NCBI GenBank assembly: GCA_046347035.1
Contig: JAXMGY010000001.1
Span: 18,485 to 82,484, forward strand
Reading direction: 5' to 3'
DNA from: Gammaproteobacteria bacterium
GTDB lineage: Bacteria > Pseudomonadota > Gammaproteobacteria > JAJPIJ01
DNA: 64,000 bases
The translations under genes and the position numbers were made by a program. The notes beneath the pieces are model-generated. The model had not been told where the DNA came from. It did no database searches and worked only from the letters and a program-made list of their open reading frames with translations. Positions 4,365-58,470 of this stretch are shown one piece after another (position 1 is the stretch's first letter; each line of letters begins with the position of its first letter).

Positions 4365-4443
4365 CCGTCGTTCCCGCGAAGGCAGGACCCAGTCTAAGAA
4401 GCGTTGTTCTTCAACTGGATTACCGCTTGCGCGGGAATGACGA
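4365..4443 (-). repeat. MITE-like palindromic intergenic repeat, family copy A (reverse orientation)
   Basis: Reverse complement reads GTCATTCCCGCGCAAGCGGtAATCCAGTT..ACTGGGTCCtGCCTTCGCGGGaACGACG. Same architecture as seven other copies in the window. Confidence 0.75.
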
Positions 4444-4481
4444 TACATCTAATCGGATGTCAGAAGGCGTCACCTAGCAAT

Positions 4482-5599
4482 TTAGTGCCGCAGTGCTTCG
4501 GCCGCTGGCGTGTAATGACGTTTCAGTGCCTTCGCCACCGCTTGATGCGTAATCAAGCCATTGTGCACATTCAAACCATTGCAAAGATGCGGATCCTCGG
4601 CACAGGCGCGGCGATAACCTTTGTTCGCCAGCGCAATCGCAAATGGTAGTGTCGCGTTGTTGAGTGCAAAGGTTGAAGTGCGCGCCACGGCGCCGGGCAT
4701 ATTCGCCACACAGTAGTGCACAATGCCATCCACCACGTAAGTCGGATCAGCGTGCGTGGTCGCCTTGCTGGTTTCGAAGCAGCCGCCCTGGTCGATCGAT
4801 ATATCCACCAACACCGAGCCCGGTCGCATCTTCTTCAGCATCGGTCGCGTCACCAGTTTGGTGCCGCGGCGCCGGGGACCAACACTGCGCCAATGACCAA
4901 ATCCGCACTGACAACCTGTCGCTCAATGGTGTCGACGGTCGCATAAGCGGTATACAGCTTCGAGCCGAATTGCTCATCAAGTTGCTTTAAGCGATCAAGC
5001 GAAAGATCCACCACCGTCACATGCGCTTCCAGGCCCATGGCCATGCGTGCAGCATTGGTGCCGGCAACACCACCACCGAGCACGACCACTTTCGCGGGCG
5101 GTACGCCAGGAACGCCGCCGAGCAAAATGCCGGATCCACCGCGTTCTTTTTCCAAACAATGCGCACCGACTTGGATTGACATGCGACCCGCCACTTCGCT
5201 CATCGGCGACAACAACGGCAGCGTGCCACGTGGGCTAGTCACCGTCTCATAGGCAATGGCGGTGCAGCCGGATTTCATTAACGCCGACGCCTGTTTTGGA
5301 TCTGGCGCCAGATGCAGATAAGTGAAAAGCAGTTGCCCCTTGCGCAGCATGCGGCATTCGCCTGGCTGCGGCTCTTTTACCTTGACGATCATCTCCGCCT
5401 TGCGGAAGACTTCGGCGGCATTGGCGGCGATGCGTGCCCCGGCGGCGCGGTAGTCGCGATCAACGAAGCCGATGCCAAGTCCTGCGCCGGTCTGAATCAG
5501 AACGCGATGGCCATGATGAATCAACTCCCGCACGCTGGCGGGCACTAGGCCAACGCGGTATTCGTGGGTTTTTATCTCTTTTGGTACGCCGATGAGCAT
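4482..5599 (-). pseudogene. ald: Alanine dehydrogenase, split by a frameshift near 4850
   Basis: ORF 4850..5599 has the N-terminal Rossmann motif '[14 protein letters not shown]'. ORF 4482..4853 has the C-terminal Ald region. Combined length about 372 aa. Confidence 0.8.
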
Positions 5600-5681
5600 C
5601 GCAACCTCCTCGCGCCAAGGCGCGTTGGTGAAACGAAGTGATATTCGCTAACTATCTGCACGCCAATGTGCAAATGATGTC

Positions 5682-5756
5682 GTCATTCCCGCGCAGGCGG
5701 GATTCCAGTTCAATATGAACTCATTTTGAATCGGTAGCCGCTTACGCCGCGACGAC
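5682..5756 (+). repeat. MITE-like palindromic repeat, copy B (degenerate 3' hairpin)
   Basis: GTCATTCCCGCGCAGGCGGGATTCCAGTT followed by an AT-rich spacer and a degenerate second arm ending GCGACGAC. Confidence 0.65.
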
Positions 5757-5839
5757 AGGTTTATGTCTGATTGCGGCGAGCAGCTCCATTAAATTTGCTA
5801 CCCATCTATCCTTCTGACGCTTGTGGCGAATCGGAATTA

Positions 5840-7165
5840 CTACCCAACAGCGCGAATCGCCTCGGCCAAGGTCCCCAGCATCTGATCAATGTGTGGCTTC
5901 TCAACGATGAGTGGTGGCGATAGCGCAATGGTCTCGCCGGTCTGCCGCACCAGCACGCCCTTCTCAAAGCAGCGTATGAATACTTCGTAGGCGCGTGTGC
6001 CCGGCCGATCCGGCCGCGGCGCCATCTCCACCGCGCCGACTAGGCCGATATTGCGAATATCGATGACATTGGGCAGCCCTTTCATCGCGTGTAGGCCATC
6101 CTCCCAATACGAGGCCAGGGACGCCGCGCGCGTGAACAAACCCTCGTGTTCATATATATCCAGCGACGCCAGGGCTGCCGCGCAGGCCACCGGATGTCCC
6201 GAGTAGGTATAGCCATGGAAGAGCTCAATGGCATTCTCGGGCAAGCCCGCATTCATGAACGCGTCGTGGATGGCCTTGCGCACGAATACCGCGCCCATGG
6301 GAATGGCGCCGTTGGTGATGCCCTTGGCGGTGGTAATCATGTCCGGCACCACATCGAAATACTGCGCACCAAATGGCGCACCCAGTCGCCCGAAGCCAGT
6401 AATCACTTCGTCGAAGATCAAGAGAATTCCATGCTTGGTGCAAATCTCGCGCAGCTTCTGCAGGTAGCCGTGCGCGGGCAGAATCACACCCGCCGAGCCC
6501 TGCACCGGCTCGACAATGACCGCGGCAATGGTCGAGGCATCGTGCAGTGCAACGATGCGCTCTAAGGCGTCCGCCAGATGCGCGCCCCACTTTGGCACGC
6601 CGCGGCTGAAAGCATTGTGCTCCAGGTCGAAGGTATGCGGCAGATGGTCTACGCCGGGCAGCAAGGGCCCGAAACTCTTGCGATTATTGCCCAGGCCACC
6701 GACCGAAATGCCGCCAAAGCCAACGCCGTGGTAACCCTTCTCGCGGCCGATAAAGCGCGTGCGTGCGCCCTCGCCGCGATTGCGGTGGTAGGCAAGCGCG
6801 ATTTTCAGCGCCGTGTCCACCGACTCAGAGCCGGAGTTGGTAAAGAAAACGTGCTGGATGTCGCCCGGCATGTGCTTGACCAGCCGCGCGGCCAGCTCGA
6901 AAGGCAGCGGATGCGCCATCTGGAAAGTTGGCGCAAACTCCAGCTCGCGGATCTGCTTTGCCACCGCTTCGTTGATGCGCTCACGGCTGTGGCCGAGATT
7001 CACACACCACAGGCCCGCCGTACCATCAAGAATTGACCGGCCGTCGGCGGCGGTGAAATGCATGTCCTTGGCCGCGACAAGCAGTCGCGGTGCGCCCTTG
7101 AACTGGCGGTTGGCAGTGAAGGGCATCCAAAATGCGTCGAGATTGGTAGAGGCTTTACTGGTCAT
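5840..7165 (-). CDS. bauA: Class-III (omega) aminotransferase, beta-alanine:pyruvate transaminase-like
   Basis: Intact ORF. N-terminus 'MTSKASTNLDAFWMPFTANRQF' and the body strongly recall omega-amino acid:pyruvate aminotransferases. PLP-lysine region 'DMITTAKGITNGAIPMGAV'. Start taken at the internal Met (7165); the ORF track begins at 7234. Confidence 0.8.
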   Translation of the reverse strand: MTSKASTNLDAFWMPFTANRQFKGAPRLLVAAKDMHFTAADGRSILDGTAGLWCVNLGHSRERINEAVAKQIRELEFAPTFQMAHPLPFELAARLVKHMPGDIQHVFFTNSGSESVDTALKIALAYHRNRGEGARTRFIGREKGYHGVGFGGISVGGLGNNRKSFGPLLPGVDHLPHTFDLEHNAFSRGVPKWGAHLADALERIVALHDASTIAAVIVEPVQGSAGVILPAHGYLQKLREICTKHGILLIFDEVITGFGRLGAPFGAQYFDVVPDMITTAKGITNGAIPMGAVFVRKAIHDAFMNAGLPENAIELFHGYTYSGHPVACAAALASLDIYEHEGLFTRAASLASYWEDGLHAMKGLPNVIDIRNIGLVGAVEMAPRPDRPGTRAYEVFIRCFEKGVLVRQTGETIALSPPLIVEKPHIDQMLGTLAEAIRAVG

Positions 7166-7402
7166 GGCTCGTCGGTAAGCTTGGGTTGAACAGATGAAAG
7201 TCGCGGCCTCGGGATGAAAAAATTTTCCGCGCACTGCATTAGTAAATTGCTGCGCCGCTCAATCGCTATGCGCTGACCCGTAGATGGTCAAATCATAGCA
7301 CGCAATGATAAAAATAATAGACACCTCGGCATTCGATTCGCCGAAATGCTCAGTTATACTATGGGCGGTGTTTAGTATTTTGTGACCCCCGGAGAGCAGG
7401 CG

Positions 7403-8011
7403 ATGGCCAAAAAGAAAACCGCCGGCCGCTCAAAACGCGAACGGCCTGCTGAGAAAACTCGCGCCACCGAGGACATCGGTGCACGCCTGCAAGCCATTCG
7501 CACAATGGTGGGGCTGTCGCAGCGCGAGCTTGCCAAACGCGCCGGCGTCACCAACGGCATGATTTCGCTCATCGAGCAGAATCGCGTCAGCCCATCGATC
7601 AGCTCGCTGAAAAAAGTGCTGGACGGCATTCCGATGTCGTTGGCGGATTTTTTCACCATGGATCTCGGCGCCAACGGCCAGATTTTCTTTCATGATGAAG
7701 ACCTGCCCGATTTGGGCAGCGGTAAGATTTCGTTTCGTCTGGTGGGTTTCAATCGCCACAATCGCGCCATGTCCATTTTGCACGAACGCTATCATCCGGG
7801 CGCCGATACCGGTGAGGAAATGCTTTCGCACGCCGGCGAAGAAGGCGGTGTGATCGTACAGGGCAGCATTGAGCTGACCGTTGGCGGGCAGAAACGCATG
7901 CTCGGCCCCGGCGATGCCTATTATTTTGAAAGCCGGCTGCCGCACCGGTTTCGCAATCTTGGTGACGACATCTGCGAAGTGATTAGCGCTAACTCTCCGC
8001 CGACATTCTGA
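7403..8011 (+). CDS. XRE-family HTH plus C-terminal cupin transcriptional regulator (PuuR-like)
   Basis: HTH 'LSQRELAKRAGVTNGMISLIEQN'. Cupin 'GEEGGVIVQG...GDAYYFES..PHRF'. GGAGAG RBS sits 6 nt before the ATG at 7403. Confidence 0.75.
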   Translation: MAKKKTAGRSKRERPAEKTRATEDIGARLQAIRTMVGLSQRELAKRAGVTNGMISLIEQNRVSPSISSLKKVLDGIPMSLADFFTMDLGANGQIFFHDEDLPDLGSGKISFRLVGFNRHNRAMSILHERYHPGADTGEEMLSHAGEEGGVIVQGSIELTVGGQKRMLGPGDAYYFESRLPHRFRNLGDDICEVISANSPPTF

Positions 8012-9524: not shown

Positions 9525-9593
9525 ATCGGAATAAACGTGGTTTTGAAGTCCTACCAACCCGAGATTGTGGTGACGACAGCGAGGACAATAGTC

Positions 9594-10760
9594 ATGACAA
9601 CATTTACTATGAAAAATAAGCGCGTTGCTTGGAAATTAAGTGTAGTAACGGTCGGCGCCTTCATCGGCGTTGCCACATCGGCCATCGCCGTGGCTGAAGA
9701 GGACAAATTCGTCGACATCGTCGCTTGGCCTGGTTACATCGAGCGAGGCGAAACCGACAAAGCTTACGATTGGGTGACGGAATTCGAAAAGGCCAGTGGC
9801 TGCCAGGTGCGGGTGAAAACCGCTAACACCTCTGATGAGATGGTGGCACTGATGAATGAAGGCGGTTTTGATTTGGTGACCGCGTCGGGGGATGCGAGTT
9901 TGCGCCTGGTTGCCGGCGGCCGCGTGCAGGAAATCGACACCAGTAAAATCCCGAGCTGGAAGAACGTTGATGAGCGCCTGCAAAACGCGCCCTGGCACAC
10001 CGTGGATGGCAAGCATTACGGAGTTCCTTATCAATGGGGTCCAAATGTGCTGATGTACAACACCAATGTTTTCAAGGAAGCACCGAAAAGCTGGAAAGTG
10101 GTGTTCGAGCCCATGGATTTGCCGGACGGCAAGCCCAATCAAGGTCGTGTGCAAGCCTACGACGGTCCTATCTACATTGCCGATGCCGCGCTCTACCTCA
10201 TGCACAATAAGCCAGAGCTGGGCATTAAGGATCCATACGAACTGAATGAGGATCAGTACAAGGCCGCGCTTGATCTGATGCGCGGACAACGCAAGCTGGT
10301 GTCGCGCTACTGGCATGACGCGATGATCCAGGTCGATGATTTCACCAACGAAGGCGTGGTGGCTTCGTCAAGCTGGCCGTTCCAGGTGAATCTCTTGCAG
10401 TCGAAGAAAGCACCCATCGCCAGCACCGTGCCAGAGGAAGGCGCCACTGGTTGGGCTGATACCACGATGATGCACGTTAATGCGCCGCATCCTGGTTGCG
10501 CCTACAAGTGGCTGGAGCATTCGCTTGATCCGAAACTGCAAGGCGATCTGGCGGCATGGTTTGGTTCGGTACCTGTTGTCACTGCGGCCTGCAAGGGCAA
10601 TGCGCTACTGACGGATGAGGGCTGCAAAACCAACGGTCTGGAGTTATTCGATCGTATTCATTTCTGGAAGACGCCGGTCAGCAAGTGCGCCACACAGAGC
10701 GAATGCGTACCTTACTATCGGTGGGTAACCGATTCGATTGCTGTCATCGGCGGCCGTTGA
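9594..10760 (+). CDS. Polyamine ABC transporter periplasmic substrate-binding protein (PotD/PotF/YdcS family)
   Basis: Signal peptide 'MKNKRVAWKLSVVTVGAFIGVATSAIAVA'. GAGGA RBS 8 nt upstream of the 9594 ATG. SBP fold. Confidence 0.8.
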   Translation: MTTFTMKNKRVAWKLSVVTVGAFIGVATSAIAVAEEDKFVDIVAWPGYIERGETDKAYDWVTEFEKASGCQVRVKTANTSDEMVALMNEGGFDLVTASGDASLRLVAGGRVQEIDTSKIPSWKNVDERLQNAPWHTVDGKHYGVPYQWGPNVLMYNTNVFKEAPKSWKVVFEPMDLPDGKPNQGRVQAYDGPIYIADAALYLMHNKPELGIKDPYELNEDQYKAALDLMRGQRKLVSRYWHDAMIQVDDFTNEGVVASSSWPFQVNLLQSKKAPIASTVPEEGATGWADTTMMHVNAPHPGCAYKWLEHSLDPKLQGDLAAWFGSVPVVTAACKGNALLTDEGCKTNGLELFDRIHFWKTPVSKCATQSECVPYYRWVTDSIAVIGGR

Positions 10761-10853
10761 TAGATCAATGCTACATGTAAGGCATAGAGGTTAACTTGCT
10801 CCTCTCGCCGAGTCTGAATGACGGAGCAGAAATCGGTACTAGCGCGCAATGCC

Positions 10854-10930
10854 GTCATTCCCGCGCAAGCGGGAATCCAGTTAAAGATGAATTTATTTTT
10901 AACTGGGTCCCCGCCTGCGCGGGGACGACG
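10854..10930 (+). repeat. MITE-like palindromic repeat, copy C
   Basis: GTCATTCCCGCGCAAGCGGGAATCCAGTTaaagatgaatttatttttAACTGGGTCCCCGCCTGCGCGGGGACGAC. Confidence 0.8.
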
Positions 10931-11099
10931 GCTTGTCTTTGTTTGCATTAAATGACTCGCTGGGAGTGATAGCTATCTTCATGGCCGTTCCCTCTCCCCT
11001 CGCGGCAGAGGGTCAGGGTGAGAGGGAATGTTGGCACCAACGCCGACTATTCCCTTGCGTCTCCTGCCGTGTGCGAGAAATAGAGAATAAGGAGGATGC

Positions 11100-12122
11100 T
11101 TGTCAGTAGCTGTTCAATTCATGGGTGCTTCGCGTCGATATGGTGAAGTGCGCGCCGTGGACAAAGTTGATCTTTCGATCAATGACGGTGAATTCTTTGC
11201 CATGCTCGGGCCTTCGGGGTCAGGCAAAACCACTTGCCTGCGCCTTATTGCCGGCTTCGAGCAACCTGACGATGGCACGGTATTGATACACGGCCGCGAT
11301 ATGCGCGGCGTGCCGCCATTCGAACGCGACGTCAACACCGTGTTTCAGGACTACGCGCTATTTCCGCATATGAATGTGCTGGAGAACGTCGCCTACGGGT
11401 TGATGATCAAGAAAGTTCCACTTGCCGAGCGTCAGAAACGTGCCGAAGAGGCCTTGGAAATGGTGCAACTGGGCGGATTCGGCAGCCGCAAACCCTTTCA
11501 GCTTTCCGGCGGCCAACGTCAACGTGTGGCGTTGGCGCGGGCGCTGGTCAACCATCCCAAGGTGTTATTGCTTGACGAGCCGCTGGGTGCGCTCGATTTG
11601 AAACTGCGCGAGCAAATGCGCACTGAACTCAAGGCGCTGCAGCGCCGTGTTGGCATTACCTTCATTTTCGTTACGCACGATCAGGAAGAGGCGCTGGGCA
11701 TGAGTGATCGCGTGGCGGTGTTCAATCGTGGCCGCATCGAACAGCTCGGTACGCCCATGGAGATTTACGAACGGCCGAATACTGAATTCGTCGCCGGCTT
11801 TGTCGGGCTGTCGAATATTCTGCGCGCAGACGTTGCGCAGCGGTTGGTGGGATCGCCCGCGACGGTTGCCATCCGTCCCGAGAAAGTTTCACTGCAACCC
11901 GAAGGCTCTCATGTCGACGCCGCGAATTGCCAGGCACCGGGCATCATTGAGGATATGGAATTTCTTGGCGCGATAACTCGTGTCACCGTGAATCTGGCAG
12001 ATGGCACACCCATGGTGGTGCTGACGCAGAACAATGCCGCGCAGGAAGCAATCAAAATGAAAGCCGGCGATCGGGTCGTTTTGAGTTGGCGGCGCGGTGA
12101 CGTGCATACGCTTTCGCAATGA
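11100..12122 (+). CDS. ABC transporter ATP-binding protein, polyamine importer type (PotA/YdcT-like)
   Basis: Walker A 'GPSGSGKT'. Signature 'LSGGQRQRVALARA'. Walker B 'LLLDEP'. C-terminal TOBE-like extension. TTG start at 11100 after an AAGGAGG RBS. Confidence 0.85.
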   Translation: MSVAVQFMGASRRYGEVRAVDKVDLSINDGEFFAMLGPSGSGKTTCLRLIAGFEQPDDGTVLIHGRDMRGVPPFERDVNTVFQDYALFPHMNVLENVAYGLMIKKVPLAERQKRAEEALEMVQLGGFGSRKPFQLSGGQRQRVALARALVNHPKVLLLDEPLGALDLKLREQMRTELKALQRRVGITFIFVTHDQEEALGMSDRVAVFNRGRIEQLGTPMEIYERPNTEFVAGFVGLSNILRADVAQRLVGSPATVAIRPEKVSLQPEGSHVDAANCQAPGIIEDMEFLGAITRVTVNLADGTPMVVLTQNNAAQEAIKMKAGDRVVLSWRRGDVHTLSQ

Positions 12123-17569: not shown

Positions 17570-20500
17570 ATGAAAAAGGTGTCTTGGACGATATGGGCTG
17601 TCGTTGTAGTTGTGGTGACACTGGCATTTGAAAAAGCAGGGGCGACCCCAGTACCGGAAAATGGACTGTCAGATCTCATTACAGCCTTGCAGCTAACAGA
17701 ACCGGTCGTCGCGACGACTAAATCAACCGACCAAGACCGAGCCGAAATCGAACGTCTCATCGAGCGCACCGCTTCGATGTCTCGTGCGGAGAAAGCTGAA
17801 GCGATTGCCGAGTTTATCGATCATCACCCCCACTCGCCTTTTCGAGTTGCACTCGAAGCTAATCTGGGCTTTCAGTACCTGCATGACGGATATGTTTCCA
17901 GGGCGATCACGTCGCTCAGCGCTGCCTGGGAGCACGGGCGAGAGGCGCGCGGATTAGCCATTGAAGCGCTTGTAGACAAAGCTGTTGGTGACCTGCTTGT
18001 CACCCACGCACGTCTGGGGCACAGCAATGAGACCGAACGTTTACTGACTGAGATTTCCGGGCGACCCATCATGGGTAGCGCAGATGTCGCAGTCAGCACC
18101 GCTCGGGACGGCCTGTGGCAAATCCAACATGAACCGGAACAGGCACTGCGCTGTGGGGCTATGGCATTGAACGCACTGCTGCAGTCGCGGCACAGCGACG
18201 CGGCTCTGCGATCCGAATTGATGAACATCGCGGTCGATAAACAAGGCATGAGCCTCGCGCAGATTGCTAAACTGGCTGAGCACCACGGCGTTACCTTGAA
18301 AGCGGTCAGGTCCCTGCAACGCGATGCTGTTGTACCGGTGCCCGCGATTGTGCATTGGAATGTGGGCCACTACGCGGCGGTGCTTGCGAAAAACGGCAAG
18401 GAATATCTAGTCGATGACCCGGTATTCGGCGGACGTAAATGGATTTCGTCGGATGCACTGCAAGCAGAGACAAGCGGACACTTCCTTGTTCTTGCCGATG
18501 CGCCGGCTACAGATTGGGCCGAGCTTGCGACAAAAGAGGCTGCAAACATTCGTGGTGCGGGATACACAAACACCGACGATCCTCTCTACACCCGCCCGCA
18601 GGATCACAAGGAGTGCGACCAACCTTGCGGCAGCAGCAACCCTCCTGGGGGAATGCCGGTCCCTGCTGTGCACTCGATGCTGGTGAGCCTGAACATTGTC
18701 GACCGACCCGTGAGTTACACCCCGCCCAAGGGGACCGACGTCGACGTGGTGCTGACCTACAACCAGAAAGAATCAGACCTTCAACCAGCCGTATTCACGT
18801 ACTCAAACTTTGGTCCCAAATGGAACTTCAACTGGCTAAGTTTCATACAGGATGACCCAAACTCGCCCGGCAACAGTGTTATGCGTTACGTCGCTGGTGG
18901 TGGTGGGCAACGTTATTCCGGCTTCAATTCGTCGACGGGTGCCTTTACACCCGAGAAGCGCAGCGGCGCCCAGTTGGTGAAGACGGCTGCGAATACCTAC
19001 GAATTGAGGGATGCCGACGGTTCTAAGGAAGTGTTCGGATTTTCCGACGGAAGCACGGGTTATCCTCGCAAGATATTCATGACACAACGTGTTGACGCAG
19101 CCGGTAATGCCGTGACGCTGCAGTACGATGCACAACGTCGCCTCACCGGAATCGTCGATGCCATCGGGCAGACCACGACACTGCAATACACCCACACCAA
19201 TCCGTTACTGATAACAGCGATAACCGATCCTTTTGGTCGAAAAGCGACTGTTACGTACGATACGTCGGGAAGGCTGTCTTCGATCAAGGACGCGATCAAT
19301 CTAACGTCCTCGTTTACCTACGATACAGGTACATTCATCACCGCGATGACTACCCCGTACGGAACCACCCAATTCGCTTACGGGGAGGGAGATAACCGCC
19401 AGCGATGGCTTGAGATCACCGATGCGCTCGGTAAGAAGTCGCGCGTCGAGTTCCGGCACAACGCACCATATCCCGCTTTTGATCAGACGCCACCGACAAA
19501 CGACTTTCGAACCACGTGGTTTCACTCACGGAATACCTACTATTGGGATCAAACCGCGATGGCATTAGCGCCAGGTGACTATACCAAGGCCCGCATCAAG
19601 CACTGGGTGCATCGAGGAGACAAAGACAGCGAAACCGACGGTGTTCTTGAGTCGGTAAAATATCCACTCGAAAACCAGATTTGGTACAAGTACCCTGGTC
19701 AAGGTGACACAGCCTTCAGTGGCAGCTTTGACAAACCAATTCTGATTGCGCAGACGCAACCTGACGGCACGGCAAAACTGGAGAGATATGAATACAACCA
19801 GTTCGGCAAAGTGACCCGCTACATCAACCCACTCGGCCACGAGTACGTCTACGAATATGACACTAACCAAATCGATTTGCTGCGGATCAAGCGACGCAGG
19901 GTAAGCACTGACACGCTCGATACCTTTGCGCAATACACTTACAACACGCAGCACCGCGTTCTCACATATACCGATGCTGCAGGCGGTATCACGAGATATA
20001 CGTACAACACCGCTGGGCAGCTTCTCTCTCAGATCACGCCGGCAAACGAGACGACCAGTTACGCTTATGACGCCAAGGGCTATCTCACCAGCATCACCAA
20101 TCCCCGCGCGCAGACAGCGGTAACCTATACATACGATGCCGTCGGCCGCGTCAACAAGCGCACTGATTCGCAAGGATCTATCCAATATGCCTATGACAAT
20201 TTGGATCGGCTGACGACAACGACATACAGCGACACGACGACGGAAACGAACACATACGACAAGCTGGACGTGAGCGTTGCAAAAGATCGCAACGGAAAGC
20301 TTACCCGCTATGCATACGATGCGGTTCGCAATCTCGTCTCAGTCACCGATCCGCTTAATCAGGTGGTGCAATACACCTACTTCGAGAACCGTTTACCCAA
20401 GACAGTTAAGGATGCACGCAATAATGTGACAAGCTGGACGCGTGATATTCAGGGGCGAGTACTCAGCGAAAGCAGTCCTGATCGCGGCGCTACCACATAT

Positions 20501-22378
20501 ACATACGATGTGGTCGGCAATCTCGCAACGACGACGGACGCAAGAGGAAACACCACAACCTATACTAGGGACAAACTCAGACGTCTCACCAAAGAGCTGT
20601 ACAGCAATGGCGAAACGTCAGATTTTGCTTACGACGGCACAGTCAACGGCGAGCTAGGGACTCTTACGAACGCAACCAAGGTCGGTCCGTTCAAGTATGA
20701 TAGCCGCGGTTGGTTGGTTGAGCAGGGCGGTGGTAGTACGCAAACCGAAACCGTCTCCGTCGTTGGAGTAATCTTAATTGCTGGGCGACCTTTCCTGACT
20801 CGAGTCCCGCAGGTGGTTGTAGCGACACCTCCACGCACATTGTACAGCTACACATCCGCTGGACGGTTAGCATCAATCACGTATCCGTCTGGCAAAGTTG
20901 TTACTTACAACTACAGCGGTGGAATGGTATCCGACGTGTCAGTCAATGGAACCACAATTCTAAGTAATGTTACCCATACTCCCATGGAGCCCATCACGGG
21001 TTGGACGTGGGGTAACGGTACGGTGCACCCGAGAACGCTTGATGCGGACTATCATGTGAGAAGTTACAAGATTGGATCAGCCACACGAGACCTCACCTAT
21101 GATTCCGAAGGGAATCTACTCATCGTTGTCGATAGCGCGACGTCCAGTCTTGGTCCCACCTATACAAACGCAGATGATTTGGGCAGGGTGATCAGTGAAA
21201 CGAATCTTGCCAAGAACCTGGCTTGGACGTACGACTCAAATGGCAATCGAATTTCAACACGAATTGGACTTGGAAATACGCCCTACAGCCTTACGTACAG
21301 CGGTTCGAGCAACCGCTTGCTCTCGCTCTCTGGTCCCACAGCACGTACCTTTACGTATGATGCGGCGGGCAATATTACTTCAAACGGAAGCTTGATATAT
21401 CAGTATAGCGCACGTGGCAGATTAGCCGCGGTGAATCCACAGGCGCTTACCAGTTGGTCTAACTATCGGTACAACGCACTGGGCCAGCTGCGTGCCCGCG
21501 ATATGGACGCGGATACGAATCGTCGATTTGCCTACGACCCGGCCGGTCACCTGCTTGGTGAGTATTCGTCTTTGAGTGGTGGCTTCAGCCAGGAGACGGT
21601 ATGGCTAGGCGACATCCCGGTGGCGGTGCTGTCGGGCACCAACACCATTCAGTACATCCACGCCGACCATCTGAACACGCCGCGGGCGCTCACGGACACG
21701 ACGGGCAAGGTGCTGTGGCGCTGGGACTCCAACGCTTTTGGCGAGGGATTGCCGAATGAGGATGTGGACGGCGACGGGGTGAAGGTGACCTACAACCTGC
21801 GCTTCCCTGGTCAGTACTACGACAAGGTCACGGGCAAGCACTACAATTACTTCCGCGACTACGATCCGGAAACCGGGCGCTACCTGGAGTCCGATCCGAT
21901 TGGACTCGCGGGGGGCTTGAATACTTACGCCTATGTCGGTGCGAATCCGCTGACTAGATTTGATCCGTTTGGGTTGGCTTGGAACTGTACTTATGTTCAA
22001 TCAACCGGCCGGTTGTATTGCGTCGACGATGAAACCGGGAAATCTGTTTATGAGCGCTGCTATTCCGGCTCAGAGAGTCGAGGTGGGAAAAACGATCCCG
22101 ATAAGGAATCAGAGAGAAGAACCGGACCGATACCCCGTGGAGGTTGGGACATAGGCGGCTATGATAACTCCAAAGGCCCCCGAACCATCGACCTCTCTCC
22201 CAGATCGGGTACGGAAACATACGGTCGTGATCTGTTCCGAATACACGGTGACAGTCGCAGGCACCCTGGCAACGCGTCGGAAGGGTGTATTATCTGCGAC
22301 CTTTTAACACGTGAAAAGCTAACCAATGGATCAGGCGGTACTGTAACTGTCATCCGCGCAGAACCATTTGCAAACTAG
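17570..22378 (+). CDS. RHS-repeat polymorphic toxin with Sec signal peptide, C39-like peptidase domain, YD/RHS repeats, RHS core (ending ...DPIGLAGGLNTYAYVGANPLTRFDPFGL) and a C-terminal L,D-transpeptidase-like toxin tip
   Basis: Intact 1602-aa ORF. Signal peptide 'MKKVSWTIWAVVVVVVTLAFEKAGA'. C39-like motifs 'ALRCGAMALNALL' (Cys195) and 'VHWNVGHYAAVL' (His267). Many YD-type repeats ('YTYD', 'YAYD', 'TYTYD'). Core 'RFPGQYYDKVTGKHYNYFRDYDPETGRYLESDPIGL'. Tip motif 'RIHGDSRRHPGNASEGCII'. Confidence 0.9.
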   Translation: MKKVSWTIWAVVVVVVTLAFEKAGATPVPENGLSDLITALQLTEPVVATTKSTDQDRAEIERLIERTASMSRAEKAEAIAEFIDHHPHSPFRVALEANLGFQYLHDGYVSRAITSLSAAWEHGREARGLAIEALVDKAVGDLLVTHARLGHSNETERLLTEISGRPIMGSADVAVSTARDGLWQIQHEPEQALRCGAMALNALLQSRHSDAALRSELMNIAVDKQGMSLAQIAKLAEHHGVTLKAVRSLQRDAVVPVPAIVHWNVGHYAAVLAKNGKEYLVDDPVFGGRKWISSDALQAETSGHFLVLADAPATDWAELATKEAANIRGAGYTNTDDPLYTRPQDHKECDQPCGSSNPPGGMPVPAVHSMLVSLNIVDRPVSYTPPKGTDVDVVLTYNQKESDLQPAVFTYSNFGPKWNFNWLSFIQDDPNSPGNSVMRYVAGGGGQRYSGFNSSTGAFTPEKRSGAQLVKTAANTYELRDADGSKEVFGFSDGSTGYPRKIFMTQRVDAAGNAVTLQYDAQRRLTGIVDAIGQTTTLQYTHTNPLLITAITDPFGRKATVTYDTSGRLSSIKDAINLTSSFTYDTGTFITAMTTPYGTTQFAYGEGDNRQRWLEITDALGKKSRVEFRHNAPYPAFDQTPPTNDFRTTWFHSRNTYYWDQTAMALAPGDYTKARIKHWVHRGDKDSETDGVLESVKYPLENQIWYKYPGQGDTAFSGSFDKPILIAQTQPDGTAKLERYEYNQFGKVTRYINPLGHEYVYEYDTNQIDLLRIKRRRVSTDTLDTFAQYTYNTQHRVLTYTDAAGGITRYTYNTAGQLLSQITPANETTSYAYDAKGYLTSITNPRAQTAVTYTYDAVGRVNKRTDSQGSIQYAYDNLDRLTTTTYSDTTTETNTYDKLDVSVAKDRNGKLTRYAYDAVRNLVSVTDPLNQVVQYTYFENRLPKTVKDARNNVTSWTRDIQGRVLSESSPDRGATTYTYDVVGNLATTTDARGNTTTYTRDKLRRLTKELYSNGETSDFAYDGTVNGELGTLTNATKVGPFKYDSRGWLVEQGGGSTQTETVSVVGVILIAGRPFLTRVPQVVVATPPRTLYSYTSAGRLASITYPSGKVVTYNYSGGMVSDVSVNGTTILSNVTHTPMEPITGWTWGNGTVHPRTLDADYHVRSYKIGSATRDLTYDSEGNLLIVVDSATSSLGPTYTNADDLGRVISETNLAKNLAWTYDSNGNRISTRIGLGNTPYSLTYSGSSNRLLSLSGPTARTFTYDAAGNITSNGSLIYQYSARGRLAAVNPQALTSWSNYRYNALGQLRARDMDADTNRRFAYDPAGHLLGEYSSLSGGFSQETVWLGDIPVAVLSGTNTIQYIHADHLNTPRALTDTTGKVLWRWDSNAFGEGLPNEDVDGDGVKVTYNLRFPGQYYDKVTGKHYNYFRDYDPETGRYLESDPIGLAGGLNTYAYVGANPLTRFDPFGLAWNCTYVQSTGRLYCVDDETGKSVYERCYSGSESRGGKNDPDKESERRTGPIPRGGWDIGGYDNSKGPRTIDLSPRSGTETYGRDLFRIHGDSRRHPGNASEGCIICDLLTREKLTNGSGGTVTVIRAEPFAN

Positions 22379-23060
22379 AGAGCATGCAGCTATGCGTTCC
22401 GAGATAAGACAAGCCAAAATCTTTCGTTTGTTTTTGGTGATATGTTGTTTCTGTTGTTGGCCGTTGACTCGCTGCTTGGCGAGCAGCAGCCAGATTGCGT
22501 TACCTGAATATGTCGATGACATATTTGGGTGGCACGCTGGTACGACAACATTAACTAATGTGCAAGGACTGATGGGGCAGTCACCATTTCATGTTCGCGG
22601 AGATGCTGCGTCGTCAGAAACATTCATTTGTTATGTCATCAGAGACACCAACCAGTCTTGGATAGTCACGTTTACGTCTGACAATGAACTTGCAGACGTG
22701 TCGTCTCACGAATTAACCGGAATTGAGCTGACTCGTCTCGATGCAGGGTTGCATGCTAGCAACGATTGCACGGTCGCACTGGATAATCGTGACGTAATGA
22801 CCCTTGTAAGGATGAGTGAGACTGATTTTATGGCGAAGTTTTCTCCACCGGTTGTTCATAAAGGCGAATACGGCGGCTCTATCTGCGTCGAAAATCCAAT
22901 TGATCGGAAAGATCCTGCATACCAGTACTGGCGGGGGAAGAAGAACTGTTTCCCGGAGGGGAAGGAACCATATGTCAATGTGTGCACGACATGGGGCGCG
23001 CAGTTTCGAGATAAAGTTCTCACGAAGTTGACGGTGAAAAGGGTTTCTAGTGTGTGTTAA
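22368..23060 (+). CDS. Putative periplasmic immunity protein cognate to the RHS toxin tip
   Basis: Overlaps the RHS stop, suggesting translational coupling. Signal peptide 'IFRLFLVICCFCCWPLTRCLASS'. Alternative start Met at 22392. No known family. Its position directly after the toxin tip follows the usual RHS toxin/immunity arrangement. Confidence 0.55.
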   Translation: MQTREHAAMRSEIRQAKIFRLFLVICCFCCWPLTRCLASSSQIALPEYVDDIFGWHAGTTTLTNVQGLMGQSPFHVRGDAASSETFICYVIRDTNQSWIVTFTSDNELADVSSHELTGIELTRLDAGLHASNDCTVALDNRDVMTLVRMSETDFMAKFSPPVVHKGEYGGSICVENPIDRKDPAYQYWRGKKNCFPEGKEPYVNVCTTWGAQFRDKVLTKLTVKRVSSVC

Positions 23061-23099
23061 TGTTCTTGGAGCAATTTGGAGAGGCAGCACAAAAACAAT

Positions 23100-23320
23100 C
23101 GAGGACGTAGGGCGGACGGCATCAATACATATACGTACAATGGCCGTGGCCGGCTCTACACGGCACAAGATATTTCGATCACGCCCCGTGGGTTAGACGG
23201 TTGGTCGTACTATCGCTACGACGGATTAGGTCTGATGTCGGGGCGCGATATTAACGGAGAGAGCCGACGCTTTACTTACGACCCGGCCGGACATTTGCTT
23301 GCTGAGGCAGGAAATAGGGG
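23100..23320 (+). pseudogene. Degenerate RHS fragment (displaced cassette remnant), truncated at the junction element
   Basis: Reads 'NTYTYNGRGRLYTAQDISITPRGLDGWSYYRYDGLG...RRFTYDPAGHLLAEAGN'. Parallel to the start of the next cassette but stops at 23311. Confidence 0.5.
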
Positions 23321-23378
23321 TCGGAGTGAATTAATTTGGTGCATGGAAACGGTCGCGCCAATTCAAACACTTCGATCC
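23311..23378 (+). repeat. Conserved ~70-bp junction element, copy 1, at an RHS cassette boundary
   Basis: GAAATAGGGGTCGGAGTGAATTAATTTGGTGCA..GCGCCAATTCAAACACTTCGATCCC. About 80% identical to 24966..25036. Contains an imperfect hairpin (GAATTaatTTGG / CCAATTC). Confidence 0.6.
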
Positions 23379-24235: not shown

Positions 24236-24292
24236 CCGTTCAGCGACACGTGGAGGATGCCTTGGGTACGAAAGAGATTCTGGGAGGTAGCT

Positions 24293-52554: not shown

Positions 52555-53952
52555 ATGTCTCAAACCCACAAATTGCTGGTACCGGCGGTACTGGCGGTGT
52601 CGGCCGCGCTGGCCGCCCCCCCCGCCTTTGCGGCCAACGATGCAATGATGCAACTGCTAAAGGTGCTGAAAGACAAGGGCACCATCGACCAGGAAACCTA
52701 TGATGGCCTGGTCAACGCCGCCAAGGCCGATGACGAGCATGTGCAATTTGCCGAGGACGAGGTCAAGAAGGCGCAAAAGGAACAGCCCAAGATCGACACC
52801 AAGGGTAAGCTTGAAGTCACTTCCGCTGACAAGGATTTCAAGTTCCGCATTGGCGGCCGACTGCACATCGACGCCACGATTCCGGATAACGATCGCGGCA
52901 CCACCCGCAACACCAACTTCGAAGATCGCGCCACCGCGCGCCGCATGCGCCTGTACGTCGAAGCGCAGTTGTGGAAAAAGTGGGCGTTCAAGACCGAATA
53001 TGACTTCGCCGACGCCACCACCGGCGGTTCGCCGCAGACCGGCCTGCGCGATGCGTGGGTGCGTTACCTGATTGGCGAGAAGGGCGACAACATCACCGGC
53101 AATGTCACGCTGGGCCAGTTCGTCGAGTACATCGCGCTCGAAGAGATCAACAGCTCCAATGAAATGACGTTTGCGGAACGTTCGGTGGCTGCACAGGCCT
53201 TCGATGCCGCCAATGGCCGCCGCCTTGGTCTCGGCACACAGTTGGCGCTGTACGACAAGTTCAATGTTTCATTGGGTTTGTTCGGACGTGAACTGGGCGT
53301 GACGAGTGCGGACGACAGCAAACGTGTCACTGGCCGGTTGGTCTACTCACCCGTGCACTACCCCGGTCGCGTGTTGCACCTTGGTGTGGCTGGCTCGTAC
53401 ATCAGCGATTTCGATGGCAACACCTTTACTTCCAATCCGCGTTCGGAGTTTGACAATCCGGGTGGCAATCGCCTGCTCAATACGTCGATTGCGAATGCGG
53501 ACGACGGCTATCGACTTGCCGCCGAAGCCGCGGCCGTATACGGACGCTTCTCGCTGCAGGGCGAGTATCAGAACTTCAACGTTAACCGTCGCGGCGTTTT
53601 GTCCGATCCGAGCTTCGACGCCTGGTACGTGCAGGGCACGGTCAGCCTGACCGGCGAGCCACGCAACTACTCCTTCGAAGAAGCGCGCTTCAAGGCGCCC
53701 AAGCCCAATGGCATCGTTGGCAAGGGTGGCTGGGGTGCATGGGCGTTGGCACTGCGTTACTCCAGCATCGATATGCTGGACAAAGGTCTGGGCGGCGGCG
53801 AAGAGGATACACTTACTGCGGGCTTGAACTGGTATGCGACGCCGAACCTGCGCCTGCTTGCCAACTACGTGAAGGTGCTGGACCTCACCGGCGGCAACTT
53901 CAATGGCGCCGAGCCCAGCGCATTCATCCTCGGATCGCGTCTGTACTTCTAA
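52555..53952 (+). CDS. Phosphate-selective porin (OprO/OprP family)
   Basis: Signal peptide 'MSQTHKLLVPAVLAVSAALAAPPAFA'. Porin_O_P-like barrel with C-terminal 'RLYF'. Pho box upstream. Confidence 0.8.
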   Translation: MSQTHKLLVPAVLAVSAALAAPPAFAANDAMMQLLKVLKDKGTIDQETYDGLVNAAKADDEHVQFAEDEVKKAQKEQPKIDTKGKLEVTSADKDFKFRIGGRLHIDATIPDNDRGTTRNTNFEDRATARRMRLYVEAQLWKKWAFKTEYDFADATTGGSPQTGLRDAWVRYLIGEKGDNITGNVTLGQFVEYIALEEINSSNEMTFAERSVAAQAFDAANGRRLGLGTQLALYDKFNVSLGLFGRELGVTSADDSKRVTGRLVYSPVHYPGRVLHLGVAGSYISDFDGNTFTSNPRSEFDNPGGNRLLNTSIANADDGYRLAAEAAAVYGRFSLQGEYQNFNVNRRGVLSDPSFDAWYVQGTVSLTGEPRNYSFEEARFKAPKPNGIVGKGGWGAWALALRYSSIDMLDKGLGGGEEDTLTAGLNWYATPNLRLLANYVKVLDLTGGNFNGAEPSAFILGSRLYF

Positions 53953-53990: not shown

Positions 53991-54130
53991 GTCATTCCCG
54001 CGGAAGCGGGAATCCAGTCAAAAACTTATTTTTACTGGTCCCCGCTTTCGCGGGGACGACGGAAATAGCTCTATTTGAGCCAATGCGGTCGTTGCGAAGT
54101 GGCACCTATTTGCAGTCTTCTATTTAGTCA
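53991..54130 (+). repeat. MITE-like palindromic repeat, copy G, plus ~70-bp 3' extension module
   Basis: GTCATTCCCGCGGAAGCGGGAATCCAGTcaaaaacttatttttACTGGTCCCCGCTTTCGCGGGGACGACGG, then AAATAGCTCTATTTGAGCCAATGCGGTCGTTGCGAAGTGGCACCTATTTGCAGT, which is shared with copy H. Confidence 0.8.
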
Positions 54131-54566
54131 TTACTTCGCTTCCACGTTCCTTCCCCTGCATCGCGGGGGAAGGTTAGGATGGAGGTAATTCAATTCTTGC
54201 TCGAGCCAATGAGCTCGGTGCATGGATTCATGCACTGAGCAATTCATTTCACTTCTTCTCCTAGACCGTCCGGCATCAGTCCCATCGATAGGCTGTTACC
54301 AAGGTCGGAATCGGCCACGAGCCGCCAGTCGCACCTTCCCGAAAGCAGACATTGCAACGCGGCAAAGCGGACATTGATGCTTGTCCGAATTGTGGTTTAA
54401 TTTAGTACTGTATAAAACCTGAACCAAGGAGCGGGTTCTTATGCGATTTCAGCCCCTTATCCTCGATTCGTTGTCCGATGTTATCGGATAACGCGCCATG
54501 TTATACGACATTTTCGTTTCTTCTATATCGAGTTAGGCATTTGCCATAACAGGGGAACTACAAGTA

Positions 54567-56197: not shown

Positions 56198-56546
56198 AAC
56201 TTGTTCACGGTTTGCAAGCGCATTAACACAAAATGCAAATCGGGGTCAGACCACGATTATCGCAAAGAAGGTTAGCAATAGGTCGGCGACGCTTTTTGAT
56301 CGCGTGGCTGTCGCAATTGTGTCTGGGTTTTGCGCACTGGCCCTCGGCAGCATTGTCTGGTATTGATTGTCGTGGAAGTTCGCAAGTGAGAGTCTTCTGC
56401 CGATTGCACCGATAGTCTACTTGGCTATCGGCGTAGCAATGCTTGGATTTTTCTTCGTCGACAATGTCATCGTGATGCTTTTTGTATGGGTAGTCGAATT
56501 GCTGCTCCTTGTTGGAAAGTTTTAGGCCAAGCGCGGTAGAGCAAGA

Positions 56547-57266
56547 TCAATATGTACTCCGCCGCGGCCGTCCATACGCTTCGCCGGGTAGTTCAAATGG
56601 CGTAGTGCGTCCAACCAGCGATTCGATCAGAGCCAGTTCCGCATCAGTGTGGTTCTTGAAAGGCGCTGGGCGAATGCGCTCATCGCCTTTTGCAAGAATA
56701 TAGCGCGGCGCGTCGTGGTGCTGCGAAGTGATGGTCTCGGTGGCATCGGGCTTGTCGTTGGCGGAGAGTTCGGTGGTGCCGTAGCAGGTGCAGATGTAGG
56801 TTTCATCCGGATCGGCTTCGACGTAGACGCCAGTGCCGCGTATGCCGATGGTGGCGGTGGCGGTTTGCACGCTGTGCGTGGATTTGCCAAACACGGATAG
56901 CAGTTTGCCGGTGACCAGTCGCAGAGTGCCGACGACAAATTCCTCCGCGCCCGCGGCGGCGAGCTGCAGCTTGGTATTGCTGCGCGTAATAAATGCATCG
57001 CGGCCGACAACAAAGATCACGCTTGAGTTGGCGCCGGTTTCGACCAGATCGCTGGCGCGAATGGGCGTGGATGTCTGCACAGGCTTGCCGTTGACGCGCA
57101 CGTCACCCTCTACGCTGTAAACAGACTGTCCTGCTGGCAATGGATTGGGCACGGCGCCCAGCAATCGTGCCGACACGGCGCCGGAGCCCAGTGCGAAAGC
57201 CCCCATCGACAGCAATTTCACCAGAACCTGGCGTCGATGTTCATCGAAATCCGCTGGCGTTTTCAT
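56547..57266 (-). CDS. FecR-domain periplasmic protein with Tat-like signal
   Basis: 'MKTPADFDEHRRQVLVKLLSMGAFALGSGAVSA' (RRxVL twin-arginine-like). 'ATATIGIRGTGVYVE' FecR-type beta-sandwich motif. Confidence 0.5.
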   Translation of the reverse strand: MKTPADFDEHRRQVLVKLLSMGAFALGSGAVSARLLGAVPNPLPAGQSVYSVEGDVRVNGKPVQTSTPIRASDLVETGANSSVIFVVGRDAFITRSNTKLQLAAAGAEEFVVGTLRLVTGKLLSVFGKSTHSVQTATATIGIRGTGVYVEADPDETYICTCYGTTELSANDKPDATETITSQHHDAPRYILAKGDERIRPAPFKNHTDAELALIESLVGRTTPFELPGEAYGRPRRSTY

Positions 57267-57378
57267 TGCGAACTCCTCCAATGGCTAAGCTCTATAGCTC
57301 TCGACCATAACATAGCACTGCGACGCGTCCGTAGTCCCGGCTTGAGATATATCGAGCCCCGTAACAGAATAGCGATTC

Positions 57379-58275
57379 ATGAACCCGCTCCACCGCCGGC
57401 TGTGCGTTTTTCCCTTGCTTTGTTGCGTACTGCCAGCCGTGTTGGCGCAGCCGGGCTACCTGGATGTGGGCGCCGACTATTTATATGAGAGCAACATTGG
57501 GCGCGCCGAGCATAGCCATGACGTTCTCAGTGACAACATCGCAGCGTTTTCCGCTGCCTACAATTTGCCCTACCCGCTTGGCGAACGCAGCGGCCTGCTG
57601 AATACCGCGCGCTTGGACTATGCGCGCCACGCCGATCAAGAGGACTTAAGCGAATTCGACGCCAGCCTGGGTTCGCAGTGGCGCTACAAGCCCGGTGCGG
57701 CTTTCACCGCACCATGGCTGGAAGCGTCCGCGCGCGCTGCCGTGATGCAATTTCAGGACAGCGATATTCGTGATGGCGCCTCGTTGCGTGTGGGTGCCGA
57801 TATTGGCCGCAACTTCACCGATCGGCTGATCGCGCGTATCGGTTATCGCTACGAATGGCGGCATGCGTGGGACGCGGATGTTTTCAATCTGTCCAATCAT
57901 CGTCTGGCGGGTAGTTTCGATTTGACGCTAAGCGATCGCCTGGCGCTTTACGGCAGCGTCGGTTGGCAGATTGGCGATCTGGTTTCGACGGCTACACCAT
58001 CGCCGGCAATTCTAAACATATCCGAGGCACGCGCACTCGATACCGCACTCAGTGATCGCGCGCCTGGAGCACTCAGAGTCGGCAACTACTATCAGGGCGA
58101 TCGCGTGGCGTATCGACTGGAAGGTCAGACACTGACTGGCGAGATCGGCATCAACTATGCGCTGTCGCGTACGTTAGCGCTGGATCTTTCGGTGTTGCGC
58201 TTTGATGCCGCCGGCGATGGCGACAATGATTATCACGGTTATCAGGCTCGCGCTGGATTGCTGTATCGGTTCTAG
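57379..58275 (+). CDS. Putative outer-membrane beta-barrel protein
   Basis: Signal peptide 'MNPLHRRLCVFPLLCCVLPAVLAQ'. Alternating amphipathic strands. C-terminal 'GLLYRF' OMP signature. Divergent from the FecR-domain gene. Confidence 0.5.
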   Translation: MNPLHRRLCVFPLLCCVLPAVLAQPGYLDVGADYLYESNIGRAEHSHDVLSDNIAAFSAAYNLPYPLGERSGLLNTARLDYARHADQEDLSEFDASLGSQWRYKPGAAFTAPWLEASARAAVMQFQDSDIRDGASLRVGADIGRNFTDRLIARIGYRYEWRHAWDADVFNLSNHRLAGSFDLTLSDRLALYGSVGWQIGDLVSTATPSPAILNISEARALDTALSDRAPGALRVGNYYQGDRVAYRLEGQTLTGEIGINYALSRTLALDLSVLRFDAAGDGDNDYHGYQARAGLLYRF

Positions 58276-58317
58276 CGCGGAGAAAGAAAGGTTTCAATTA
58301 AGTTGGTACCAAATGTC

Positions 58318-58470
58318 GTCATTCCCGCGCAAGCGGGAATCCAGTTATAGATGAATTCATTTTTAACTGGATCCCAGCCTACCCGGGAACGACGGGATTA
58401 GCTCCGTTTGAACCGATGCGGTTGTTGCGAAGTAGCACCTATTCGCAGTTGTCTATCTTGGTGGAATAAG
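58318..58470 (+). repeat. MITE-like palindromic repeat, copy H (degenerate second hairpin), plus 3' extension module
   Basis: GTCATTCCCGCGCAAGCGGGAATCCAGTTatagatgaattcatttttAACTGGATCCCAGCCTACCCGGGAACGACGG, then GATTAGCTCCGTTTGAACCGATGCGGTTGTTGCGAAGTAGCACCTATTCGCAGT. Confidence 0.75.

Follow-up and report, generated by a model that had tools for sequence, protein, structure and literature searches.

The stretch of DNA analysed here, hereafter the window, comprises 64 kb of contig JAXMGY010000001.1 from a gammaproteobacterium and carries eight dispersed copies (A to H) of a short intergenic element, which we call a doublet: two different hairpins, inverted relative to each other, with a short spacer between them. 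The core measures about 78 bp and runs from hairpin 1 through an AT-rich spacer enclosed by CCAGTT and AACTGG to hairpin 2, the termini being CGTC and GACG. A preliminary description, made from the letters of the sequence, had already reported this architecture and eight copies, and both hold: a covariance model built from an alignment of all eight copies (model R1, alignment A5) and run with filters off on both strands of the window returns exactly eight elements (67-104 bits, E <= 6e-14), and a direct-repeat search recovers the family independently (families D2-D6). The next match of the model (63155-63210, 17.9 bits, E 0.03) resembles ordinary coding sequence and is without the motifs of the element. 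Because the element is near-palindromic, each copy scores on the opposite strand too. A mismatch-tolerant scan for either hairpin alone revealed no solitary hairpins in the window, where the motif is present solely as doublets, and no Rfam family reaches the gathering threshold across its whole length. The copies occur in both orientations (copy A on the reverse strand, the other seven on the forward strand) and every core lies between open reading frames (ORFs), as had been stated, though the stop of ORF 26924-27859 falls inside copy D. With regard to the flanking ORFs annotated by Pfam, convergent genes enclose four of the copies (D, E, F, H), co-directional genes the other four (A, B, C, G) and divergent genes none.

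Hairpin 1 (CGTCATTCCCGCGCAAGCGGGAATCCAG) corresponds to the Neisseria Transformation Sequence (NTS), a consensus of 28 nt (CGTCATTCCCGCGMAVGCGGGAATCYRG) which contains the dRS3 repeat, ATTCCC-N8-GGGAAT (Chenal et al. 2025, PMC11893778). Applying the match criterion of these authors, at most one mismatch to the consensus, hairpin 1 agrees with NTS in five copies out of eight, those of C and H being exact and those of A, B and G having one mismatch each; two mismatches separate F from it, three separate E, and in D the hairpin is split by a loop insertion. The dRS3 repeat itself is present in five of the eight copies, as hairpin 1 alone. Contrary to the preliminary description, the family is accordingly not new, given that its first hairpin is the published motif of the Ssn system. 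On the top strand, hairpin 1 stands in the sense of NTS (CGTC-ATTCCCGC-GNNN-GCGGGAAT-CCAG) and is followed by a spacer of about 20 nt and an inverted variant hairpin. This hairpin 2 reads CGTC-GTCCCCGC-GNNN-GCGGGGAC-CCAG on the bottom strand and there, as CGTCGTCCCCGCG-NNN-GCGGGGACCCAG, keeps the frame of NTS with GTCCCC/GGGGAC in place of ATTCCC/GGGAAT. Judged by its sequence, the element is an inverted pair of NTS-like hairpins, one sense hairpin beginning each strand.

The protein partner of NTS is known from the same work. SsnA, a single-domain GIY-YIG protein of 94 aa, binds the NTS hairpin solely as single-stranded DNA (ssDNA), requires sequence and hairpin together, and cleaves a few nucleotides upstream of NTS; ssn homologues in many phyla have such hairpins at their flanks, for which a broader degenerate Ssn-related motif (SRM) was defined, HGTCWY N0-2 YYVSBRH N0-5 WNVSBRG N0-2 RNCYNB (PMC11893778). 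In the window, this published string is matched by hairpin 1 of C and H alone, and it overlooks the common partner variant GTCCCC...GGGGAC. Taken together, the elements very probably belong to a class of doublets made of NTS/SRM hairpins.

The state of preservation differs considerably among the copies. Compared with dinucleotide shuffles, the ssDNA folds of C (z -9.4), G (z -8.1) and D (z -6.6) are clearly stable, while H, A, B, E and F, with z running from -5.0 to -0.4, are decayed to a varying extent; intact copies form a short closing stem, CCGTC/GACGG, bearing three hairpins, or alternatively a single long hairpin. The best-preserved doublet is C (10854-10929, forward, 104.1 bits), in which an exact NTS (10853-10880) is joined to an exact inverted hairpin of the G type (10903-10929), and which folds as a closing stem with three hairpins. 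Copy G (53991-54060, forward, 89.5 bits) has a hairpin 1 one mismatch off NTS and a short spacer. In copy D (27825-27922, forward, 80.7 bits) the G-type hairpin (27896-27922) is exact, and the loop of hairpin 1 holds an insertion of 27 nt (~27835-27861); the enlarged first hairpin had been noticed before, with a start at 27835 that is in fact the start of the insertion. Copy H (58318-58393, forward, 88.4 bits, z -5.0) retains an exact NTS (58317-58344) next to a decayed hairpin 2, and the same asymmetry is seen in A (4367-4441, 82.7 bits, z -3.6; the sole reverse copy), where one mismatch separates the A-type hairpin (4415-4441) from NTS and the partner hairpin (4367-4393) is degenerate, and in B (5682-5756, forward, 79.6 bits, z -2.6), where an A-type hairpin one mismatch off NTS (5682-5708) faces a decayed hairpin 2. 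Copy E (29471-29545, forward, 81.3 bits, z -1.8) is partly decayed, its hairpin 1 being the one with three mismatches, and the core of F (38120-38197, forward, 67.4 bits, z -0.4), which carries additional inserted sequence on its left side, is decayed most of all.

The cores of C and H, 47 kb apart, are 91% identical including the spacer, which points to multiplication within the genome. Copies G and H moreover have a 3' module in common (54065-54123 and 58398-58456, both forward), which according to a local alignment of the right flanks extends over 58 nt with about 83% identity; the preliminary description had assigned it to D as well, where we find a weak partial match. Neither the window nor any retrieved locus yielded a further copy of this module, and likeness among the left flanks, or inverse likeness between left and right flanks, stayed below threshold. 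For annotation it is of practical relevance that the repeats yield recurrent spurious peptides (VIPAQAGIQ, NWIPACAGMT, RHSRASGNPV). Both spurious ORFs previously attributed to the repeat exist; the one at 10715-10948 (reverse) contains NWIPACAGMT as reported, that at 4404-4649 (forward) reads NWITACAGMT instead. Short-read contigs of the source organism terminate near some copies.

Comparison with related genomes gives the impression of a young family. The polyphosphate kinase encoded in the window is 100% identical to NCBI protein MFO1434868.1, which comes from a gammaproteobacterial metagenome-assembled genome (contig of 122 kb). Three relatives (L209, L211, L213; polyphosphate kinase 84-85% identical) are collinear with the window from 29.6 to 52.3 kb and two others (L121, L122) cover its region of 4.6-16.4 kb. 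In about 103 kb from relatives, mostly syntenic and including two short contigs of the source organism (L207, L208), model R1 finds zero elements, versus eight in the 64 kb of the window; empty sites in related genomes, which the preliminary description proposed to look for, do exist. Copy F is the clearest case, a clean insertion of 194 bp (38062-38255, forward) composed of 58 nt, the 78-nt core and another 58 nt, which is absent in three syntenic relatives; at this site the genes for the RF-1-domain and PHP proteins, which converge, overlap each other in L211 and L213 (alignment A7), and the last codons of the PHP ORF in the window (stop 38096-38098) derive from the insert. No direct repeat of >=3 nt is found at its junctions, that is, this sole cleanly resolved insertion lacks the target-site duplication which had been suggested as a check. 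At the site of B, the gap between aminotransferase and AlaDH amounts to 240 bp here vs 18 bp in L122, and at the site of C the intergenic gap is 340 bp here, where L121 has 68 bp and L122 has 73 bp; the insertion boundaries of these two copies are not resolvable, the intergenic DNA being too diverged. Other copies stand where gene content differs. Copy D marks a synteny break, DUF2007 adjoining a GSDH-like gene here and PGM in L209, and A likewise lies at a point where synteny with the relatives ends. Copy E forms one edge of a segment of about 1.3 kb between PreP and DUF2007, which it shares with a gene for an EamA-family transporter (28262-29308); in L211 and L209, PreP and DUF2007 are 52-54 bp apart, without EamA at that position. 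The doublet family has apparently entered or expanded recently in this gammaproteobacterial lineage, and its copies now seem to be decaying at differing rates.

As to the immediate neighbours, copy A is placed between the 3' end of an AlaDH fragment (ORF 4482-4853, reverse) and the start of an aldehyde dehydrogenase fragment (3407-4333, reverse). Two copies reside inside apparent operons, B between the genes for an aminotransferase (5840-7234, reverse) and AlaDH (4850-5599, reverse), C between those for the substrate-binding protein (9537-10760) and the ATPase (11100-12122) of a polyamine-type ABC transporter. Copy G follows the 3' end of a porin O/P gene (52555-53952) and H that of a gene for an outer membrane beta-barrel protein (57379-58275). 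Some conserved genes of the region are split in two ORFs: AlaDH (window 4482-5599) with 123 + 249 aa vs 373 aa in L122, and the PreP/M16 peptidase (29610-32508) with 241 + 778 aa vs 966-988 aa, while the aldehyde dehydrogenase (2817-4333) is truncated; these may be either frameshift errors in the assembly of a metagenome-assembled genome (MAG) or pseudogenes. The disrupted AlaDH is bracketed by the inverted copies A (reverse) and B (forward) over 4367-5756, a configuration of the type 'NTS-gene-NTS' that has been discussed for Neisseria.

The doublet is not confined to the window. A pattern spanning both hairpins (GGGAATCYRG-N10-40-CRCGGGGACRAC) matched at least 119 stretches in a collection of species-representative genomes, nearly all of them full doublets, so the further copies in other genomes on which the idea of a dispersed family depended were found. 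Among the matches listed, most titles refer to Betaproteobacteria (Casimicrobiaceae, Burkholderiales, Rhodocyclaceae, Gallionellaceae, long-read soil MAGs), and Alpha- and Gammaproteobacteria are also represented, for example by Methylomonas subterranea and Pseudomonas paralcaligenes. Model R1 scores doublets of other genomes at 42-78 bits. Their stems are Watson-Crick paired to 98.8% in hairpin 1 and to 94% in hairpin 2, with the right arms fixed by the search pattern; the covariance-model alignment A6, which mixes both strands of near-palindromic matches, was left out of the pair counts. An asymmetry of G:T vs A:C mismatches, as a sign of strand-specific folding, gave no readable signal in these stems, which are almost perfectly paired and have one arm fixed by the pattern. 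Across 96 oriented doublets, complementarity between the loop of hairpin 1 and that of hairpin 2 was observed 31 times vs 13.5 expected (maximum 25 in 1000 shuffles), which fits an origin of the doublet as a long palindrome. A test for doublets inside long ORFs gave no usable signal, long stop-free stretches arising by chance in GC-rich genomes. In the viral contigs of IMG/VR the doublet pattern was present in four only; two contigs of the viral collection (L204, L206) contain four or five doublets each within 10-13 kb and may represent prophage-adjacent host DNA or misclassified sequence.

The connection to Ssn is provided by these other genomes. In five of the 119 listed loci (L025, L113, L055, L006, L013), which had been picked for doublet content only, the repeats are accompanied by an adjacent Ssn-like GIY-YIG gene that encodes about 97 aa. 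The two full-length genes scanned match PF01541 with E 4e-15 (L113) and 7e-18 (L025), and the spacing of Tyr7, Tyr18 and Glu65 in their products equals that of Y6, Y17 and E64 in SsnA, offset by +1; NCBIfam returned for the Ssn-like protein a sub-threshold match to a group I intron endonuclease alone, and a PDB sequence search weak, unrelated matches to designed proteins alone. A metagenome scan with an alignment of Ssn-like proteins (A4) retrieved a further 80 ssn loci. The third row of this alignment is a constructed, family-like sequence of 95 aa, which also served as the tblastn query. The resulting 85 loci hence combine five genome loci found by tblastn with the Ssn-like query and 80 found by the Ssn alignment, Pfam having confirmed the GIY-YIG domain for two. 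At the 80 metagenomic loci, a hairpin lies within 300 bp upstream of the gene in 64 cases, downstream in 70 and on both sides in 56. Up to a distance of 300 bp from the gene, the density is 4.5 hairpins per kb, vs 0.14 per kb beyond (32-fold). In 44 of the 80 there is a sense hairpin <=120 bp upstream and an antisense one <=120 bp downstream. The arm sequences vary among loci and usually agree on both sides of one gene (GTCCCCGC, ATTCCCGC, ATTCCGGC, ACCCCCGC and others).

The order of parts within such a cassette is best seen in L191 (2466-2842), where an exact NTS, CCAG, CGACTTTC and the ATG of ssn are followed, after the gene, by GACAAAGACA, CTGG and an inverted NTS. The commonest doublet spacer, CCAG-YGWCKTT...AAMGWCR-CTGG, has words next to CCAG and CTGG that match those of this cassette. 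In L113 the ssn gene sits inside the central stem of a pair made up of a G-type hairpin in sense orientation and an antisense hairpin that is truncated. The spacer found in the window, CCAG-TTAAAG-ATG-AATTTATTTT-TAA-CTGG, loosely resembles cassettes with an ATG 12-16 nt after CCAG and a TAA abutting CTGG, a likeness we consider only suggestive. These correspondences suggest that the doublet may be the cassette minus its gene or, equivalently, the cassette a doublet carrying ssn, and we regard a derivation from, or equivalence to, the ssn cassette as somewhat favoured. With respect to the cassette of L191 it was further observed that the ssn frame reads through the downstream hairpin (2800-2835) and stops at a TGA within GGGAATGACG, so that the repeat encodes the C-terminal residues of the protein. 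Short tandem arrays of doublets occur by or near ssn in L013 (a soil betaproteobacterial MAG; 1932-2528 and 7888-7998) and L025 (Methylomonas subterranea; 1272-1700), and several of their hairpins hold loop insertions, like copy D.

We therefore favour, as the probable explanation, that the elements of the window are doublets of Ssn hairpins, gene-less miniatures of a hairpin-ssn-hairpin cassette, which are recent in this lineage. In the complete cassette, a single-domain GIY-YIG ssn gene of about 97 aa is preceded by a sense hairpin and followed by an antisense one, each at a distance of about 20 bp, and the doublet would represent its non-autonomous, REPIN-like miniature without the gene. 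Whenever the DNA becomes single-stranded, the hairpins would fold and a genome-encoded Ssn could bind them in trans. Nicks by Ssn would be expected on the 5' side of each sense hairpin, at a distance of a few nucleotides, and since the sense hairpins lie on opposite strands, they would fall just outside both ends of the doublet, allowing excision or copying of the unit, or recombination at the sites. Mobilisation in trans by Ssn is conceivable, and we put it forward tentatively. Seven of the eight doublets share one orientation, and the cumulative GC skew rises over the window; this may be a replication-related bias (binomial p ~0.07), which is of relevance if the hairpins act on single-stranded DNA. 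Given the 194-bp insert of F and the 3' module of G and H, the spreading unit can exceed the 78-bp core, just as NIME joins dRS3 with variable RS modules. One may go further and ask whether the doublets are non-autonomous members of an unrecognised class of mobile elements, with the 97-aa GIY-YIG Ssn as 'transposase' and the cassette of about 380 bp as the autonomous form, i.e. a GIY-YIG analogue of RAYT/REPIN whose miniature would be copied or moved via single-stranded intermediates without target duplication. This extension is speculative and, in our opinion, rather unlikely; if true, it would explain the spread of dRS3/NTS-type repeats over proteobacterial classes and their expansion in single lineages.

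Several observations weigh against the explanation we favour. A tblastn search revealed no ssn or other GIY-YIG homologue in the 64-kb window, and a cognate nuclease here is unproven; mobilisation by Ssn is a hypothesis only in PMC11893778 and has been demonstrated for no such repeat. The G-type hairpin 2, beginning CGTCG, fails the SRM string, which needs A or T (W) after GTC; nevertheless, hairpins of the GTCCCCGC type flank many ssn genes. The agreement of junction words between cassette and doublet comes from a single clear example, L191. What was inserted at the site of F measures 194 bp and not 78 bp, so that a larger or composite unit may have moved, and the decay of five of the eight copies argues against strong present selection on structure. 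Covariation in the central stem of the doublets is weak, with four of eight positions above shuffles, and no selected third helix is claimed for this reason. Finally, the genome scan is biased by its pattern, its number of matches is a lower bound, and the few listed matches from unrelated phyla may be chance matches or due to bin contamination.

Alternative explanations have to account for the same positions, folds and sequences. A first one holds that the elements are mainly signals at the RNA level, be it terminators, attenuators or 3' mRNA-stabilising hairpins, the latter being a role of some repetitive extragenic palindromic (REP) sequences, and that they are retained owing to their position at gene ends: each of the eight copies is located on the downstream side of one gene or more, divergent gene pairs enclose none, and intact copies are very stable hairpins. 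Purifying selection that removes insertions from promoters would, however, account for placement at 3' ends just as well. The terminator role, put forward in the preliminary description, is not borne out, as the T-run after hairpin 2 is absent in all copies (the tails read GGCTTGTC, GGAAGTAG, GGAAATAG and similar) and G and H are missing from the terminator-like sites called in a scan of 50-60 kb; intrinsic (Rho-independent) termination, in particular, was rejected by sequence, a GC stem without a direct T-run. For B and C, within apparent operons, termination would be harmful. Furthermore, folding energy is much reduced in five of the eight copies, syntenic relatives do without the elements, no Rfam family matches, and the strict conservation of sequence across phyla exceeds the needs of a simple hairpin. 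We consider a primary function in RNA quite improbable.

A role as target sites of recombination or integration, instead of mobile units, has a precedent in Neisseria, where filamentous phages integrate at dRS3 by means of a Piv/IS110-type recombinase and NIME arrays have been proposed as hot spots at which adjacent genes are exchanged (PMC1797815, PMC11893778). The synteny breaks at A and D, the segment of about 1.3 kb with an extra EamA gene adjoining E, and AlaDH between the inverted copies A and B would all agree with it. Yet no recombinase, integrase or phage gene was detected by Pfam among the window ORFs scanned (those flanking the copies and five other large ones), at B, C and F nothing was gained beyond a simple insertion, and the multiplication of the sites would be left unexplained; we judge target sites to be an unlikely explanation on their own, and a role of this kind is compatible with Ssn-hairpin doublets, as a consequence rather than an alternative. 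Classical miniature inverted-repeat transposable elements (MITEs), internal-deletion derivatives of insertion sequences with a DDE transposase that move by cut-and-paste and leave target-site duplications, were suggested by the preliminary description, and imperfect terminal inverted repeats (TIRs) of about 28 nt, small size and dispersed intergenic copies in both orientations are indeed in accordance with them. What survives of this suggestion is the geometry, which has its counterpart in the hairpin-gene-hairpin cassette; the gene is a GIY-YIG nuclease rather than a classical transposase. In the 85 loci, retrieved with Ssn queries, the 97-aa GIY-YIG nuclease is the sole gene between matching hairpins, and none of the retrieved loci showed a transposase-bearing parent. 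Each 'TIR' is itself a hairpin identical to the known site of an ssDNA nuclease, and the resolved junctions of F are without target duplication, all of which makes an origin as classical MITEs highly improbable. Judging by their consensus ends, integron attC sites and Correia elements were set aside as readings of the sequence.

The window contains some further repeats and a locus of a different nature. Just downstream of C and G lies a second, unrelated hairpin repeat (10980-11039, CGTTCCCTCTCCCCTCGCGGCAGAGGGTCAGGGTGAGAGGGAAT; diverged copy at ~54145-54190), which near C encodes the peptide PSPLAAEGQGE in the spurious ORF 10933-11109. A direct repeat of 56 nt (58716-58771 and 58968-59023, 91% identity) includes a GC hairpin (CCGCGCTGCGCGCGG) and CCCCTTTTCCAAAGGG, with a related palindrome, CCCCCCTTTGCAAAGGGGGG, between its copies (58910-58945); a short-read contig of the source organism (L001) begins inside this repeat region, and L114 is a partial match. 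The region 17570-25000 encodes a large Rhs/YD-repeat protein of 1602 aa, in which a C39 peptidase domain is combined with a C-terminal domain that is Tlde1-like. Behind it, Rhs C-terminal segments are repeated (21588-21887 and 23544-23843, identity 93%), a pattern that suggests orphan cassettes for toxin and immunity.

Based on sequence and on association in other genomes, the closest known class for the elements of the window is that of NTS/dRS3/SRM hairpins with Ssn, a class marked by proximity to single-domain ssn genes of the cd10448 type. Both have oriented flanks, CGTC at the 5' and C(C/T)(A/G)G at the 3' side, and are multi-copy and intergenic, and in other genomes hairpins of this kind bracket single-domain GIY-YIG genes of about 97 aa in inverted orientation. 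In contrast to the published systems, the NTS-type hairpin is here always joined by an inverted partner of a different variant (GTCCCC...GGGGAC), the elements reside in a gammaproteobacterium from the environment that is uncultured, and no ssn gene is present within the 64 kb. Motif and nuclease partner have been known since 2025, hence this is not a new kind of element. PMC11893778 makes no mention of miniature or paired forms, and in the literature searched we found no paper which describes such doublets or joins GIY-YIG with REPIN or RAYT. The locus contributes a clean natural case from outside Neisseria, in which the hairpins are present solely as two-variant inverted doublets, with empty sites in relatives and with a doublet that can be aligned to a gene-carrying cassette. 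It thereby makes testable how dRS3/NTS repeats multiply and whether Ssn is a domesticated or an active mobilising enzyme.

Two other systems invite comparison. NIME (dRS3-RS-dRS3, PMC1797815) is alike in its GC-rich dRS3-type inverted repeats of 20 bp around a spacer of lower GC, in the variable extra modules by the hairpins (here the 3' module of G and H and the 58-nt arms of F), and in that some copies stand at points of gene-content difference between relatives. Unlike NIME, the units of the window are solitary and not arranged in long arrays, their spacer of about 20 nt is at the low end of the RS size range (19-214 bp), and hairpin 2 is GTCCCC-N8-GGGGAC and not dRS3, whereas NIME is defined by two dRS3 repeats and by arrays. 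With REPIN/RAYT (Bertels and Rainey 2011, PMC3116915; PMC3337134) the doublets have in common two inverted hairpin repeats with a short spacer, a small nuclease gene flanked by its own repeats, a nuclease working on folded ssDNA, and a doublet as the proposed non-autonomous unit. The REP-like character noted in the preliminary description is thus retained for the inverted geometry and lost for the flanked gene, which encodes a GIY-YIG nuclease and not the Y1 (HUH) transposase of RAYT; a REP head of the GTAG type is also missing, each half of the doublet is a sequence variant of its own, and transposition of the doublet in the manner of REPINs is a proposal. The doublets resemble REPINs in their working, yet they stand outside the REPIN family, the gene they flank being of the GIY-YIG type and not a Y1 transposase.

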